Assembly: GCA_030820665.1 (NCBI GenBank)
Contig: GCA_030820665.1_4852.1
Strand: one strand, 5' to 3'
DNA from: a phage
Length of the DNA: 17,779 nt
Shown here: positions 4,099-9,654 of the stretch, in pieces
How positions within the stretch are numbered: the stretch's first letter is position 1
Layout of the letters: the number at the start of each line of letters is the position of its first letter
Notes under the pieces: model-generated
Seen by the model: only the letters and a program-made list of their open reading frames with translations
Databases searched by the model: none
What the model was told of the DNA's origin: nothing
Translations under genes and position numbers: made by a program

Positions 4099-5029
4099 CG
4101 CAAGGCTACCCCAACCGCGCATATCGCAGAGCCTGACAGACCCGCTGGGTGCTGCGACTCGCCTGTCGAAGATGGATAAGGTGATAACGCGCAAATACAA
4201 ACAATTCAGGACTCGTGCTCTTGAGTTGTTTCGCACTATTCCGAACGGTCAGGCTAATGCAGAATCAAGCGGTCTGTATTTCTACGATTTCAGCAGTGCA
4301 CGGGCTGCCACTTTCATGGATGAGTTACAGGCGCTGATTGACGAGATTCTTCTTGAAGGTGATGATTTCGGTCACGGCAGGATGTGGGCCAATGTGTTCA
4401 TTGGTGATGCGTATCAGGCCGGAACACAAAAGGCTAACTCAGAACTGTCAAGCCTGTCTCCGGTTTACGCTGAGCAGAGGCCGATTGCCGCGATACTCTA
4501 CAGTGAGCCTTACCTGAATCGGCTCCAACTGGCTTATACGCAAGGTTACTCAGACTGGCGCGGATTGAGTGATTACTCCCGCCAGCAACTGGCATCTGTC
4601 ATTATGGAAGGCATTGCCCGTGGCGCTAATCCTCGCGATGTTGAAGCTGACATTGTTAAACGTGTTGATGTATCTCACAGCTACGCGAAACAGTTGGCGC
4701 AGACTGAAATAACCGGAACGCTACGTCAGGCTAACAGGCGGGAGGTCATTGAGGCGCGCGAAGAGTTAGGCATTGAGACGGTGATGCTGTGGCAATCGGC
4801 GTTGATGCGCACAACCCGCCAGACGCACGCAGCGCGACACGGACGGTTTTATACACCAGAAGAGATTGACACGTTTTATAGCGAGAATGGCAATAAATAT
4901 AATTGTCACTGTGCACAAACACCAGCATTGCTAATGGATGGGAAACCAGTCATTCTTGAATCCTCGCAGGAAAGGCTTGATAAACAGCGTGAAGCATGGC
5001 AATCAGTCAACAAAAAGCCCTCTAAGTGA
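4079..5029 (+). CDS. Minor head / head morphogenesis protein, Phage_Mu_F (SPP1 gp7) family
   Basis: ORF 3998-5029. The likely start is ATG 4079, a 20-nt overlap with the portal gene; ATG 4172 is the alternative. Hallmarks are '[12 protein letters not shown]', '[12 protein letters not shown]' and 'NCHCAQ', as in MuF-domain proteins. There is no extra C-terminal domain. Confidence 0.8.
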
Positions 5030-5041
5030 GGGCTTGGTTTT
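5015..5041. terminator. Bidirectional intrinsic terminator between convergent MuF-like gene and leftward operon
   Basis: AAGCCCTC (5015-5022) pairs with GAGGGCTT (5028-5035) around a 5-nt loop. It is flanked by an A-run upstream and GGTTTT downstream. The stop codon of the MuF-like gene (5027-5029) sits in the hairpin. Confidence 0.8.
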
Positions 5042-5112
5042 GTCTTGTGAGCATACACAGAACAAATATTATTATCGCATAGCACAATATCTCTACGATG
5101 CTGAATATTGTT

Positions 5113-5757
5113 TTAATCATCCAGTTTCACGCCTGGAATTTTTCCTGCTGCAATGGCTTCATAAATTAGCTTGGCCTCGTCCTCGCGCCTGTAATCTTGA
5201 GCTGCCATTTCTAACACCGCGCAGATAGACTCAAGTACAGCCTCATGCTTCTTTTCTGCTTCTGTGCGTAGTGGTTTTAGGCTTTCCGGTACGAAGCAGC
5301 ATGACCGACCAGCACCACCTTCATCCCAATAGCAAACAGCCACATCGTTTCCGTCCGTTGTTGTCTTGTGCGCTACAACTTCCATTTCAGTGCCAGCATC
5401 AGGAATCCAGTCATTGCAGTATCCTAACTTTGGATTAAAGAAGAATTCTACTTTTGCACCAACTGGCGGCAGGCCTTCTCCATTCCATGTCTGCTTTTGC
5501 AATGCTGCTAGCGCGGATTCATACAAGTCGCGAGTTATCATACAATAATCCGTGGCTACGCTGACATAGCGACCGGGTATGGGGATTGCCACGGTGTACT
5601 GAAATGGCACATCAAAACCATCGCTATATCCCTTTGGGAAACAAAAAGCAATTGTGATACTGTCACCATTGAAATCACCAACTCGACACCTCTCAGCACC
5701 ATCAGGCCACCCACCACGCTTAGGTAATTCTTGAACTAACAGGTCGATAAGTTTCAT
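5113..5757 (-). CDS. Hypothetical protein (214 aa), last gene of leftward 4-gene operon
   Basis: The start ATG overlaps the upstream stop (ATGA), with GGAGAA as the SD. It contains 'WNGEGLPPVGAKVEF', followed by 'LKPLRTEAEKK' and a C-terminal 'IYEAIAAGKIPGV'. I associate this pattern with uncharacterised accessory proteins of enterobacterial (pro)phages; no function is known to me. Confidence 0.7.
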   Translation of the reverse strand: MKLIDLLVQELPKRGGWPDGAERCRVGDFNGDSITIAFCFPKGYSDGFDVPFQYTVAIPIPGRYVSVATDYCMITRDLYESALAALQKQTWNGEGLPPVGAKVEFFFNPKLGYCNDWIPDAGTEMEVVAHKTTTDGNDVAVCYWDEGGAGRSCCFVPESLKPLRTEAEKKHEAVLESICAVLEMAAQDYRREDEAKLIYEAIAAGKIPGVKLDD

Positions 5758-6068
5758 TTTGTTTCTCCCAATGCTTTATTAACCGCGGCACGTGCATTAT
5801 CCAGAGCGCGACGCTTGCTTGATGTTGTCCAGCATTTTCCGGAGTGGTCGTCGTAGATTTCCAGAAGTTGCTGGAGTGCTGATAACAGGTCAGGAGATGC
5901 CGCTATTAGCCTTGCGTTATGCCATTGCTCGGTTTTATCACCGTTATATGTTGGAGTGAATGCAACCTCGACACCAATATCCGAGATAACATCTGGCGCG
6001 TTATCATCACCAACAACAACTTCCCATTTTCCATGCGTACCTTTAAATTCTTTCACATCCAACCTCAC
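5754..6068 (-). CDS. Hypothetical protein (104 aa)
   Basis: The GTG start at 6066-6068 overlaps the upstream stop (GTGA). It contains 'NARLIAASPDLLSALQQLLE', a motif common in uncharacterised phage proteins. Confidence 0.65.
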   Translation of the reverse strand: MRLDVKEFKGTHGKWEVVVGDDNAPDVISDIGVEVAFTPTYNGDKTEQWHNARLIAASPDLLSALQQLLEIYDDHSGKCWTTSSKRRALDNARAAVNKALGETK

Positions 6069-6208
6069 TTAATATACTCAACAATCTCAACTTCACGCAT
6101 CTGCACCAGGCCAAATGGTGCAACCACCTTACCGCACGGACGGATTTTGATTTGCTCAAGGTTGAACACTCCGCAGCGTCCGTTTTCTTTGAATTTGACC
6201 ATTACCAT
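6065..6208 (-). CDS. Hypothetical small protein (47 aa)
   Basis: Not in the ORF track. Read by hand on the minus strand: MVMVKFKENGRCGVFNLEQIKIRPCGKVVAPFGLVQMREVEIVEYIK. It starts 2 nt after the upstream stop, and its TGA overlaps the downstream GTG start. Confidence 0.5.
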   Translation of the reverse strand: MVMVKFKENGRCGVFNLEQIKIRPCGKVVAPFGLVQMREVEIVEYIK

Positions 6209-6210
6209 AA

Positions 6211-6369
6211 TTAATACCCGTTTTTCTTGGCTAATTGTTGCGCACGTTTCTTCGTGTACCCACAGGCCATCAGGCGCTTGACCTCGTTGCGGCGCCTTGC
6301 GAAATGGTACTCACGAGAATTAAATGCACATTCGTTGCTAAAGTTAACATTACGTGGATTCATCTTCAT
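6211..6369 (-). CDS. Hypothetical small basic protein (52 aa; 50 aa if it starts at 6363)
   Basis: Not in the ORF track. Translation: MKMNPRNVNFSNECAFNSREYHFARRRNEVKRLMACGYTKKRAQQLAKKNGY. GAGGTG lies immediately upstream, which favours the ATG at 6363. It is the first gene after the divergent promoter. Confidence 0.5.
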   Translation of the reverse strand: MKMNPRNVNFSNECAFNSREYHFARRRNEVKRLMACGYTKKRAQQLAKKNGY

Positions 6370-6384
6370 CACCTCATTCATCAC

Positions 6385-6441
6385 TTGATGTAGATACTAT
6401 GCACCAACAACCAATCTACGTCAACACCATTGTGATAGAAT
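6385..6441. promoter_or_regulatory. Divergent promoter region: interlocked leftward and rightward promoters plus an extended -10 for the lysis operon
   Basis: Leftward promoter: TTGACG (rc of 6419-6424), 17 nt, CATAGT (rc 6396-6401) or TAGTAT (rc 6394-6399), then CTACATCA (rc 6386-6393). Rightward promoter: TTGATG 6385-6390, 19 nt, ACCAAT 6410-6415, then CTACGTCAA 6416-6424. A second rightward element is TGaTAGAAT at 6433-6441. Confidence 0.55.
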
Positions 6442-6467
6442 TAATCATTATTTGAACTGGAGGCAGA

Positions 6468-6746
6468 ATGAAACTATCGCAACGAGGCGTGGAGACGTTT
6501 GGAATTACCGATGCCGTGAATATATCGCCTTACATCACTACCGAGACAACGCAGAATCAGTTCGACGCGCTGGCAAGTCTTGCCACCGACATTGGCATTT
6601 ACGCGTTCCGTAAATCAACGCTTCTGAAGAAGCACAACCTCCGCTGCTTCTCATGTGCTGTTGCGCATTTCATCGCGTGGGGCGAGAAGACTGGCGACAA
6701 AGCAAAACGCAAAGCTGAAAAAGAGGTTTACTGGTATGGCTATTAG
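6468..6746 (+). CDS. Degenerate GH24 (P22 gp19/T4 e-type) lysozyme-like ORF lacking the catalytic N-terminal region
   Basis: 92 aa, with GGAGG at 6459-6463. 'TQNQFDALASLATDIGIYAFRKSTLLKKHNLRCFSCAVAHFIAW' parallels the conserved C-terminal half of P22 gp19-type lysozymes ('NQNQYDALCSLIFNIGKSAFAGSTVLRQLNLKNYQAAADAFLLW', recalled from memory). The N-terminal 'EEGxRLxAY..D..G..T' catalytic segment is absent. The ORF overlaps the next gene by 11 nt. Confidence 0.6.
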   Translation: MKLSQRGVETFGITDAVNISPYITTETTQNQFDALASLATDIGIYAFRKSTLLKKHNLRCFSCAVAHFIAWGEKTGDKAKRKAEKEVYWYGY

Positions 6747-7200
6747 TAAAAACATGAAGGCGTTTCTGGATATGCTGGCGTACAGCGAGGGCACTGATAA
6801 CGGGCGGCAGAAAACCAATAATCATGGTTATGATGTGATTGTTGGCGGCTCACTGTTTACCGACTATTCCGACCACCCGCGCAAGCTGATTAGCCTGCCA
6901 AGGCTGGGCATTAAATCCACCGCCGCCGGTCGCTATCAGGTACTGGCTAAGTTTTATGATGCGTACAAAAAGCAATTGCGTTTACCGGACTTCTCCCCCG
7001 CATCGCAGGACGCCATTGCAATGCAGCTAATCCGTGAATGCAAGGCCACCGCTGATATTGAGGCTGGTCGCATTGCTGATGCCATCCATAAATGCCGCTC
7101 CCGCTGGGCCTCATTGCCGGGCGCTGGGTATGGTCAGCATGAGCAGAAGCTGGATAAGCTGATTCAGGTATACAAAGAGGCTGGCGGAGCTGTGGCATGA
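6736..7200 (+). CDS. R: Endolysin, lambda R-type lytic transglycosylase (GH104)
   Basis: ORF 6655-7200 trimmed to ATG 6736 (AAGAGG at 6721-6726). The 154-aa product is near-collinear with lambda R as I recall it: 'KAFLDMLAYSEGTDNGRQKTNNHGYDVIVGGSLFTDYSDHPRKL', 'AAGRYQ' and 'WASLPGAGYGQHE'. The catalytic Glu context 'SEGT' is retained. Confidence 0.92.
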   Translation: MAISKNMKAFLDMLAYSEGTDNGRQKTNNHGYDVIVGGSLFTDYSDHPRKLISLPRLGIKSTAAGRYQVLAKFYDAYKKQLRLPDFSPASQDAIAMQLIRECKATADIEAGRIADAIHKCRSRWASLPGAGYGQHEQKLDKLIQVYKEAGGAVA

Positions 7201-7908: not shown

Positions 7909-7922
7909 TGGGGCTTTGTTTT
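7897..7922. terminator. Bidirectional intrinsic terminator after the lysis cassette
   Basis: AAAGCCCC (7897-7904) pairs with GGGGCTTT (7910-7917) around a 5-nt loop that contains the Rz stop codon. An A-run lies upstream and GTTTT downstream. Convergent genes sit on both sides. Confidence 0.85.
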
Positions 7923-7942
7923 AACCTTCTCCGTAGCCAATG

Positions 7943-8320
7943 TCACGCATAAAGCGCCTCCATCTTGTACCCAAACATAATTGCATTCTGATGCTCAGTG
8001 CTACCAGAAAACACCAGATAGCGTTTACCTCGATTATCCGTAACGATGTAGGCAGCTGGTGAGTTTTCCTTCCTAAATCTGGCTTCGTCATCACTCCCTT
8101 CATACATCCTCCCACTCGCTGGCAGATACAAATCGAATGTTTGAATTTCCGTTCCGCTGCATTCATTGCTACGTTCATTGAACAGGATAGCCAATCTTGG
8201 GTTGCCATTGGAATGCTTTGCAGGGAATGCGATTCTCCAGCCATCGCACATATACTGACTTGGGTAGGATAGCCATGACTTACCGCGCCTACCCTCCGTA
8301 AGAATCGGCTTACTCGCCAT
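7943..8320 (-). CDS. Hypothetical protein (125 aa), last gene of leftward 5-gene operon
   Basis: ORF 7943-8368 trimmed to ATG 8320, where GGAGGA lies 5 nt upstream. It overlaps the upstream gene by 11 nt. I recognise no family. Confidence 0.6.
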   Translation of the reverse strand: MASKPILTEGRRGKSWLSYPSQYMCDGWRIAFPAKHSNGNPRLAILFNERSNECSGTEIQTFDLYLPASGRMYEGSDDEARFRKENSPAAYIVTDNRGKRYLVFSGSTEHQNAIMFGYKMEALYA

Positions 8321-8585
8321 TATGATCCTCCACAATCCGCACCAGTGAGCACTCAAGATTCGGTGCATTGTAATTACCAGCCAGAAACAGCACGCTACCA
8401 GTGCTAATAAGCACCTGCTTCGCGTTCGCCTGCGACAGATTCTGCACGATGAATTGCGCTGTTTCTGTGCCGATTTTCAGCACTGCGCTGCCGTCGCTGT
8501 TCAGTGATACAAGTTGTGCGGAAGTGTCAGTAATGTTGGTGAAGTTCGCGTTTCGCTGCGCGATTGTGATGTCGCAAAAAGACAT
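8310..8585 (-). CDS. Hypothetical protein (91 aa)
   Basis: GGAGAG lies 8 nt upstream, and the start overlaps the upstream stop (TAATG). I recognise no family. Confidence 0.6.
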   Translation of the reverse strand: MSFCDITIAQRNANFTNITDTSAQLVSLNSDGSAVLKIGTETAQFIVQNLSQANAKQVLISTGSVLFLAGNYNAPNLECSLVRIVEDHNGE

Positions 8586-8887
8586 TATTTAATCTCTCCG
8601 TTCAGTTCATTAACAATTAACGTTGCATAGCCAGCAATATCTTTCCAGCTGTCATCATAAGTCGGGTCGCCATTCAGAATGCGCCCAATCTTGTGCTGAA
8701 TCATGTCGAGCGCCTCGCGTTGACTTGGTGTGAGATTGCGCCAGCCATCTACCTTGCGCATCACATCTTTCAACTCCTGCATAATTTCAGCGCCGTCTTT
8801 GAATTTACCGTATCGACTACCGCGTTCGGTGATGAGTCGCTCTGTTGCGTCAGTATGGCGCTTATCGCCCGTGATTTGTGAACTCAT
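8585..8887 (-). CDS. Helical protein resembling the phage DUF6378-type family (function unknown)
   Basis: 100 aa. 'ERGSRYGKFKDGAEIMQEL....LTPSQREALDMIQHKIGRILNGDPTYDDSWKDIAGYATL' follows the pattern ER...YG....nf..ia.......lt...a..m...K..R......h.DSw.DiaGYA. I remember this pattern from a widespread uncharacterised phage family; the family name is from memory. Confidence 0.55.
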   Translation of the reverse strand: MSSQITGDKRHTDATERLITERGSRYGKFKDGAEIMQELKDVMRKVDGWRNLTPSQREALDMIQHKIGRILNGDPTYDDSWKDIAGYATLIVNELNGEIK

Positions 8888-9374
8888 TGTGATGCATTCT
8901 CCTGAATTCTTTTATTTTTGCTTCTGCTTCTCTTATGTCGGAAAAGTAACCAACTGTGAATCTTTTGCCATTTACTCCAACTCTTGCATGCCACTTGTTG
9001 TGCGATGAACTCCAGTTAACCCCCTTGATACCGCTAGTGTTGTTTTTGTTCATTGCTTTGTTGTGGCTATTCTCAAATTTGCTGGCCTCCCTTAAATTGC
9101 ACGCCCTGTTGTCATTGCGAATGCCATTAATGTGGTCAATCATTTCACTTGCTGGCGCGCCATGAATGCATATCCATGCCAATCTGTGAGCAAGAAAAGC
9201 CCTACCGCAAAGAATTATTTGCACATATCCATCTGGCTTTAAGTAGCCAGCCACACTCCCTTTTTCTGCAATCCTATTCCTTGTCTTTAGCCATTTAAAT
9301 TCCCCAGTTAGTGGATTGTAGTAAAGGTAACTCAATATAAACTCCCTACTCGGCTCATCTCTCCTATGCCTCAT
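8862..9374 (-). CDS. HNH homing endonuclease with C-terminal AP2 DNA-binding domain
   Basis: 170 aa. The HNH_3-type core is 'AHRLAWICIHG....IDHINGIRNDNRACNLREA'. The AP2 module is 'SGIKGVNWSSSHNKWHARVGVNGKRFTVGYFSDIREAEAKIKEFRRMHHNEF'. It overlaps the downstream gene by 26 nt and is visibly more A/T-rich than its neighbours. Confidence 0.9.
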   Translation of the reverse strand: MRHRRDEPSREFILSYLYYNPLTGEFKWLKTRNRIAEKGSVAGYLKPDGYVQIILCGRAFLAHRLAWICIHGAPASEMIDHINGIRNDNRACNLREASKFENSHNKAMNKNNTSGIKGVNWSSSHNKWHARVGVNGKRFTVGYFSDIREAEAKIKEFRRMHHNEFTNHGR

Positions 9375-9577
9375 TTCTCATCCTCTTTCATTGTCACCCT
9401 ATTATTCTCGTCAACACTGAAGTTGGCCCGAATCAAATCATACATATCTTCCTTAGGCATATCAGCCAGCGCCACATAGCAACGGGCGAAGTAGCGAACA
9501 TCACGGAGTGTCAGCGGTTGTCGCTTCTCCACAATGCTGGTGATAATGTCCATCGGCTCGCGTCGTGGTCTTGGCAT
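9371..9577 (-). CDS. Hypothetical protein (68 aa), first gene of leftward 5-gene operon
   Basis: AGGAG lies 8 nt upstream of ATG 9577, and the stop overlaps the HNH start (ATGA). I recognise no family. Confidence 0.6.
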   Translation of the reverse strand: MPRPRREPMDIITSIVEKRQPLTLRDVRYFARCYVALADMPKEDMYDLIRANFSVDENNRVTMKEDEK

Positions 9578-9601
9578 ATTTACTACTCCTTCTCGAAAAA
9601 C

Positions 9602-9654
9602 ATCTTGACGTTTCTACATCATTTAGTCAATGCTTGTTGACGTAGATTGTACCA
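9602..9654. promoter_or_regulatory. Divergent regulatory region with paired CTACRTCA / TTGAYGTAG elements
   Basis: Leftward: extended -10 TGgTACAAT (rc 9646-9654), followed by CTACGTCAA (rc 9637-9645). A second leftward candidate is TTGACT (rc 9625-9630), 17 nt, CAAGAT (rc 9602-9607). Rightward: TTGACG at 9605-9610 and 9637-9642 and TTCTACATCA at 9612-9621, but I could find no convincing rightward -10. Confidence 0.45.

Follow-up and report, generated by a model that had tools for sequence, protein, structure and literature searches.

Accessory regions of enterobacterial phages consist of variable, mostly non-essential and often anti-defence genes that are flanked by core genes (Silas et al., bioRxiv 10.1101/2023.04.06.535777). 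Here, we describe a leftward cassette of five small genes (o1 to o5) in a 17,779-nt stretch of phage DNA (contig GCA_030820665.1_4852.1 of assembly GCA_030820665.1, in the following referred to as the window). This cassette resembles the accessory regions in its core flanks, its variable small genes that are non-essential in relatives, its lower GC content and its mostly uncharacterised products. It differs from them in that one gene, o2, is almost invariant, that much of the variation is due to domain swapping within two genes, and that an anti-defence or trigger function of its members is putative. As in the case of lambdoid morons, a predicted promoter and terminator of its own are found within a late-gene region and the composition differs from that of the flanks. 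But the phage appears to be virulent and hence the prophage-expression logic of morons does not apply. The ea regions of P22-like phages contain homologues of o3 and o4 (orf18 of ST104 and BTP1_020, the latter adjoining xis), but o3 and its homologues do not give a match to Pfam Ead_Ea22. Most of the ea genes are, for their part, without an assigned function. A further similar arrangement is the pair gp06-gp05 of the Klebsiella Jedunavirus KpV79, an o3-like and an o4-like gene with an ATGA overlap that are located on the opposite strand, adjoin head morphogenesis and for which a separate promoter and terminator are annotated. In contrast to our cassette, KpV79 has only these two genes and no o1, o2 or o5, the identity is ∼35%, and genus and morphotype are different.

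We conclude that the locus is probably a dispensable accessory region of a Skatevirus-like virulent siphophage, the products of which would modulate the host by counter-defence or takeover. Based on the window, the phage is of the Skatevirus/Swiduovirus type, siphophages that infect Salmonella and E. coli. Its best match was vB_SenS_ST1UNAM (L042; ST1UNAM in the following) with 96% identity across 91% of the window. Since the annotation of the closest full genome lists neither an integrase nor a repressor, the phage looks virulent. According to the annotation of relatives, the cassette is flanked by a head-morphogenesis gene on one side and by the genes for a two-part endolysin, holin and spanins on the other. 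The convergent head-morphogenesis gene ends at 5029, and the endolysin ATG is located at 6468 on the plus strand. The elements of the cassette are listed below in the direction of transcription.

6394 to 6424, minus strand: predicted sigma-70-type promoter (-35 box TTGACG at 6424-6419, 17-nt spacer, -10 box CATAGT at 6401-6396)
6385 to 6424, no strand assigned: inverted repeat TTGAYGTAGAT with 11-nt arms (6385-6395 and 6414-6424) that are 18 nt apart and 10/11 complementary
6364 to 6393, minus strand: 5' leader with Shine-Dalgarno sequence GAGG (6375-6372), from the alignment of cassette heads
6211 to 6363, minus strand: gene 1 (o1/ORF1), basic protein of 50 aa (52 aa from ATG 6369), in variable slot A
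6065 to 6208, minus strand: gene 2 (o2/ORF2), 47-aa basic all-beta protein (predicted), the conserved lineage-specific core of the cassette
5754 to 6056, minus strand: gene 3 (o3/ORF3), 100 aa (104 aa from GTG 6068)
5113 to 5757, minus strand: gene 4 (o4), modular protein of 214 aa
5022 to 5120, minus strand: gene 5 (o5), small hydrophobic peptide, 32 aa here and 26 aa in most relatives
5007 to 5045, no strand assigned: bidirectional intrinsic terminator with a stem-loop at 5015-5035, common to the cassette and the convergent head-morphogenesis gene (terminator scan)

A preliminary description of this DNA, made from the sequence alone, had proposed a leftward operon of four genes with its own promoter and terminator. 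The four minus-strand open reading frames (ORFs) are indeed present (6211-6369, 6065-6208, 5754-6068, and 5113-5757), and together they form a leftward unit with its own predicted promoter and terminator on the strand opposite to the head and lysis genes. Both control elements were found where they had been placed: the promoter TTGACG-17-CATAGT at 6424-6396 of the minus strand within an inverted repeat, and the bidirectional terminator as a hairpin at 5015-5035 with T-runs on both strands. The number of genes had to be corrected to five, since an ORF at 5022-5120 had been overlooked. It overlaps the stop codon of the 214-aa gene (ATGATTAA), and its own end is located in the loop of the terminator. 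All five genes are protein-coding. Concerning the junctions, the 2-nt gap, the GTGA overlap and the ATGA overlap can all be read from the letters as described, but the GTGA overlap is probably not real. The most likely start of ORF3 is GTG 6056, because GAGG is located 6 nt upstream of this codon and because the homologues are proteins of 100 aa that open with M(K/N/E)EF(K/Q)G. Therefore, the supposed overlap is probably an 8-nt gap after ORF2. For ORF1, ATG 6363 is likewise the most probable start: the Shine-Dalgarno sequence GAGG (6375-6372) lies 8 nt upstream of this codon but just 2 nt from ATG 6369, and one relative (L010) has no counterpart of the latter. The GC content is 43-49% in the cassette compared to 50-55% in the flanks, and composition and GC skew switch to a minus-strand pattern over 5000-6450, in agreement with leftward coding. 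The antisense placement is normal for the Skatevirus family, since small-gene blocks on either strand repeatedly break up the structural genes in the complete genome of ST1UNAM.

We subsequently compared the locus across relatives. These were sampled via the endolysin gene that adjoins the promoter, and therefore independently of the cassette content; the flanking genes were located and the interval between them was tabulated. Counts out of 33 refer to non-redundant informative relatives. Across the loci, identity is mostly 90-98% for the C-terminus of the head-morphogenesis protein and 83-92% for the endolysin, and the interval between the flanks ranges from 214 to ∼2400 nt (33 relatives). 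A total of 41 ORF clusters, some of which are probably spurious ORFs, was obtained from 36 cassettes. Gene content differs even between genomes that are otherwise 90-96% identical. ST1UNAM, despite its 96% identity to the window, has no o1, and the gene at its o3 position is only 34% identical to the o3 of the window. The five genes were recovered as follows.

o1: 4/33 relatives, one near-identical and three at 42-47%
o2 (47 aa): 32/33 relatives, 62-98% identical, mostly 81-98%
o3 family: 29/33 relatives
o4 family (complete): 28/33 relatives, 30-75% identity
o5 peptide: 23/33 relatives

A per-position alignment of the relatives against the window resolved the cassette into conserved DNA blocks and variable slots.

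6467-6378: conserved block 1, promoter and leader
6360-6215: variable slot A, holds o1 here
6210-6050: conserved block 2, 47-aa gene and start of the 100-aa gene
6047-5900: variable slot, centre of o3
5897-5690: conserved block 3, end of the 100-aa gene and start of the 214-aa gene
5687-5270: variable slot, o4 domains A and B, split by the moderately conserved WNGEGLPPVG linker
5177-4997: conserved block 4, end of the 214-aa gene, small peptide and terminator

Slot A alone is occupied by at least eight unrelated genes as alternatives to o1, and the other slots sometimes carry extra small genes or HNH homing endonucleases. The 100-aa and the 214-aa families are built from conserved ends and exchanged middles. 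Genes for HNH or AP2-type homing endonucleases were noted at this hotspot in two of the loci (L009, L013) and in the phages Sf11, Bas80 and LPST10.

The cassette genes are dispensable in relatives. In a study in which the genome of Skatevirus seszw was reduced by iterative CRISPR-based rounds, 53/81 genes were reported as removable, among them genes 69-71, a block that was lost spontaneously (PMC9825161). The phage was viable after loss of the homologues of the 100-aa and 214-aa genes and of three other genes (PMC9825161). Between head assembly and lysozyme, the deposited mutant seszw_290L has kept just the 47-aa gene (gene 73, homologous to o2), and short scars mark the sites of its deleted neighbours. 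Among ∼70 seszw records, cassette retention decreases from 100% down to 17%, with up to five of the six cassette genes lost. All seszw records examined keep the 47-aa gene, which may or may not have had a CRISPR target. A natural case is the Vi typing phage II-E1, which has only 210 nt at the position of the cassette and whose entire 45-kb genome is devoid of o2, o3 and o4. The BASEL collection paper contains nothing on this locus.

Of the individual genes, o2 is the most widely retained and is the sole cassette gene in two natural minimal cassettes (L016, L018). It matches phrog_21280 (E=5e-36), keeps an intact frame of 47 codons in 34 loci, and its variable columns are distributed over the three codon positions as 22/9/36. 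It was found in 146 phage records, full length in all of them, and in 94 clusters. The gene is confined to this phage lineage: an exhaustive profile search of 1.8 billion proteins retrieved nine representatives, which belong to the same small family or are artefacts. The structure model of o2 is confident (pLDDT 92) and all-beta. According to the models, both o2 and domain B of o4 adopt an SH3/Tudor-like small beta-barrel, a generic fold class. The similarity of o2 to Sso7d/Sac7d remained sub-threshold (E 0.15-1; hhalign probability 43%), and the likeness to SH3/Tudor/Sso7d-like barrels exists at the level of the fold only. For o2, DNA binding of the Sul7d/Sso7d type is thus a weak lead. For o1, full-length homologues with 50-60% identity are present in 9NA-like phages, including Bas82_0011 in an antisense small-gene block that adjoins the portal gene; its PHROG match is weak only. 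Thus, the two small ORFs of the preliminary description are both conserved, with homologues as well as coding signatures.

The 100-aa protein o3 matches phrog_1273. It consists of a conserved start (MKEFKGTxGxW), an exchanged centre of which many versions exist, and a conserved helical C-terminal half with the motif NAxLIAASPxLL. At the DNA level, the centre aligns in 9/33 relatives and the C-terminal part in 25-29/33. Among the matches listed, 120/120 o3 homologues carry a precomputed PF27050 assignment, including some that are 84-93% identical. The GxW...NAxLIAAxPxLL pattern of o3 is also known from Ead/Ea22-like proteins, and some database records name o3 homologues 'Ead' or 'ead/Ea22-like', although the Pfam model does not match. 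Membership in Pfam PF13935 (Ead/Ea22-like) was rejected, as neither o3 nor any of 40 family members gave a match at E<=1. A second o3-family gene is present in ST1UNAM (L042 37300-37563, minus strand; 58% identical to the o3 of the window) within the recombination/replication module, where a tandem ATCTACATCA motif and a cassette-like leader are located in front of it.

The 214-aa protein o4 matches phrog_7798 (E=5e-62) and has 3077 homologues. A near-invariant N-terminal helix (MKLIDLLVQELPKRGGWP) is followed by the variable beta domain A, the WNGEGLPPVG linker, the variable SH3/Tudor-like barrel B, and a helical hairpin that ends with IYxAIAAGKIPGVKLDD. The alignment indicates that domains A and B recombine independently of each other. 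Viral structure matches (BFVD) were to uncharacterised proteins only. The C-terminus of o3 and the N-terminus of o4 are encoded on one conserved DNA block. A paralogous relationship between o3 and o4 was rejected (BLASTP E=2.8); their initial co-clustering was probably an artefact of over-extended ORF calls.

In most relatives, the fifth gene reads MIKTIFSVVEILCYAIIIFVLCMLIR followed by TAA and thus encodes 26 aa. In the window, the product is extended to 32 aa, because this stop codon has been changed to CAA. This longer version has 8 nt in common with the convergent head-morphogenesis ORF, and its stop codon is located in the terminator loop. The substitutions in o5 are synonymous in 15/23 cases compared to 22% expected (p=1.2e-5), the remainder is conservative, and the other two frames do not show such an excess; judged by this pattern, the o5 codons are under purifying selection. 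Some relatives carry a Cys-rich 25-aa ORF (MWPICKHCGRMCLNSWCRKCDKPSK) or a 64-aa ORF at this position. The gene for the 26-aa peptide is not annotated in the records examined, and o5 did not match any Pfam or PHROG family.

The preliminary description had called the genes ORFans without a nameable function. The first part of this claim has to be revised, since three genes match PHROG families of unknown function and o3 homologues carry PF27050. Its second part agrees with our profile and structure searches, which did not return any family of known function. None of the five proteins matched Pfam (in a copy without PF27050) or NCBIfam, and a comparison to the defence and toxin-antitoxin systems of PADLOC gave no match at E<=1. 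Likewise, no significant match to solved structures (PDB) was obtained with single sequences and profiles, and nothing was found when distant o3 and o4 relatives and longer fusions were compared to Pfam. No catalytic or defence-system domains were detected in the five proteins; the predicted folds are small beta-barrels and helices.

The predicted promoter has 9/12 consensus matches (consensus scan) and is near-invariant in 32/35 relatives; an alternative -10 box, TAGTAT (6399-6394), overlaps CATAGT. Whichever gene stands first in a given relative, it follows a nearly invariant stretch of promoter, leader and Shine-Dalgarno sequence. The inverted repeat, which is also conserved in relatives, brackets the -35 box and the start region and is a candidate for an operator or a shared promoter motif. 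The terminator is nearly invariant among relatives as well and is annotated as such in phage Skate. A structured RNA in this region was considered and rejected, since Rfam gave only sub-threshold leader-like matches on the terminator hairpin.

Further copies of the 11-mer TTGAYGTAGAT are located at 9637-9647 and 1632-1642 of the window. ST1UNAM has seven sites (<=1 mismatch) in its full genome compared to ∼0.8 expected. All of them are intergenic and located at the borders of small-gene blocks, often in pairs.

TTGAYGTAGAT sites in ST1UNAM (L042): 1472, 6427/6455, 9654/9680, 20079, 24965, 37604/37614, 40256, 44205/44223

A second promoter-like site, TTGACC...GCATAGTATAATCTACATCA, is located at ∼1605-1641 on the plus strand, downstream of the large terminase gene, and has the GCATAGTAT...ATCTACATCA block (-10 block and downstream motif) in common with the cassette promoter. 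Because TTGAYGTAGAT and GCATAGTAT...ATCTACATCA recur elsewhere, the cassette seems to be one of a set of similarly controlled units, and the 11-mer may be a phage-wide operator or just a shared promoter element.

Three features of the neighbourhood should be mentioned. A candidate extended -10 promoter (TGATAGAAT, 6433-6441, plus strand), conserved in relatives, is located ∼27 nt upstream of the endolysin ATG and thus back to back with the cassette promoter. The lysis cassette opens with two overlapping lysozyme-like ORFs on the plus strand (6468-6746 and 6655-7200), which are labelled in relatives as genes of the glycosidase type (92 aa) and the transglycosylase type (154 aa). After the lysis genes, a second leftward block of small ORFs follows (7921-9600, minus strand), bounded by a divergent intergenic region with the TTGAYGTAGAT 11-mer; its counterpart in ST1UNAM includes a gene annotated as homing endonuclease zinc-binding loop region.

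Do the products act together? The tight coupling had been taken to suggest one stoichiometric multi-protein system, its ratios set by translation. The short or overlapping junctions would fit such a system. So would the order o2-o3-o4, which is the rule in Skatevirus relatives, and the adjacency of o3 and o4, which are neighbours in most of these phages, in Klebsiella Jedunavirus, and in 5/14 outside loci including some prophage contigs. The conserved block that encodes the C-terminus of o3 and the N-terminus of o4 could likewise represent a shared interface. But o1 was found in just 4/33 relatives, and o2 persists alone in L016, L018 and seszw_290L. Moreover, the families of o3 and o4 occur apart: o4 is found without o3 in the P22-like phage BTP1 (with its full architecture and adjoining xis), in phAPEC8-like phages, and in 9/14 outside loci examined, and o3 is not accompanied by o4 in ST104, in mEp213 or, as the second copy, in the ST1UNAM replication module. 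The same short junctions are common to all slot variants and are therefore more suggestive of conserved joints for recombination and translation than of a complex. Thus, an obligate four-protein complex is not supported, and the four products hardly resemble a set of fixed stoichiometry. We consider a stoichiometric system improbable, but a pairwise relationship between o3 and o4 is possible.

A second alternative is a mainly regulatory cassette, in which the basic SH3-like o2 protein would bind nucleic acid (e.g., TTGAYGTAGAT) and control the early-to-late programme, with the other genes as passengers. The gene is the sole near-universal one and the only one kept in the reduced seszw genomes. 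It is also the first conserved gene after a promoter that is set in a conserved palindrome, the motif of which recurs genome-wide, and the weak similarity to the DNA-binding proteins Sso7d/Sac7d points in the same direction. In addition, Vi II-E1 (L034), which does not have o2, has both arms of the palindrome degraded. On the other hand, this phage is viable without o2, small barrels bind many kinds of ligands, and the motif includes the -35 box, so that its recurrence may only mirror shared promoter sequence; binding of o2 to the motif is putative. A regulatory role of o2 is hence a reasonable minority view, but as an explanation for the whole cassette we regard it as unlikely. Even less probable is an action at the membrane, i.e., superinfection exclusion or lysis timing by o5. 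The conserved 26-aa hydrophobic peptide, apparently under purifying selection, and the proximity of the endolysin, holin and spanin genes would agree with this idea. But o5 is missing in 10/33 relatives, some of which have the Cys-rich 25-aa or the 64-aa ORF instead, it is transcribed divergently from the lysis genes, and it matches no holin, antiholin or exclusion family.

The reading as an accessory region has to account for contrary points, too. The earlier classification as an accessory or host-interaction module is supported in its first part, given the variable content, the absence of the cassette from Vi II-E1 and the deletions in seszw. Its second part, the host-interaction role, is only inferred, and the same is true for early timing and translational coupling. 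None of the proteins matched any characterised anti-defence protein in PADLOC, Pfam or NCBIfam. Furthermore, conservation of o2 is high and the gene was kept throughout the seszw series, so that for this gene a housekeeping or regulatory role fits better than an arms race. The conserved ends of the proteins could have a function as interfaces and not be mere joints for recombination. Finally, in seszw, 17 nt have been deleted from the spacer between the -35 and -10 boxes of the cassette promoter, which are thus only 2 nt apart (L040 2150-2175, phage Seszw_1; L039 1725-1750). This deletion may reduce expression of the cassette, and the dispensability observed in this phage may therefore partly reflect low expression.

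If the accessory region works as we propose, the sigma-70 RNA polymerase of the host would transcribe the cassette leftward, starting at the conserved promoter, back to back with that of the lysis genes, and the transcript would end at the bidirectional terminator common to the cassette and the head-morphogenesis gene. The five closely spaced genes would be translated from one mRNA, with short or overlapping junctions that could let ribosomes pass from gene to gene. Homologous recombination at the conserved blocks would swap either whole genes (slot A) or, in the case of the 100-aa and 214-aa proteins, their central domains. The products are presumably small binding-type proteins: a 47-aa SH3/Tudor-like barrel, two proteins with interchangeable middles, and one membrane peptide. 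Plaque formation would not depend on the cassette. Most likely, its products would modulate the host early in infection, by counter-defence or takeover, and the swapped domains would follow host targets that vary. A more specific version, which is speculative and in our estimate rather unlikely, regards o3 and o4 as 'scaffolded variable binders': invariant termini, which might dock mutually or to a common partner, would hold an interchangeable recognition domain that recombination shuffles into a combinatorial repertoire against host defence proteins, while o2 would serve as a quasi-essential regulator at the TTGAYGTAGAT promoters.

Cassettes of this category are already established, the genes are annotated as hypothetical in >150 deposited genomes, and our analysis does not change the understanding of phage biology. 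The locus is modestly unusual in its conserved 47-aa core gene within a variable region, the domain swapping between conserved ends, and the unannotated peptide gene. It illustrates how protein domains can be exchanged through recombination at conserved gene ends. Since it tolerates deletion and replacement, it is also a natural insertion site for payloads, in a group of phages that is used for the biocontrol of Salmonella and E. coli. If the proposed role is true, the five genes would be compact candidates for counter-defence or host-takeover screens.

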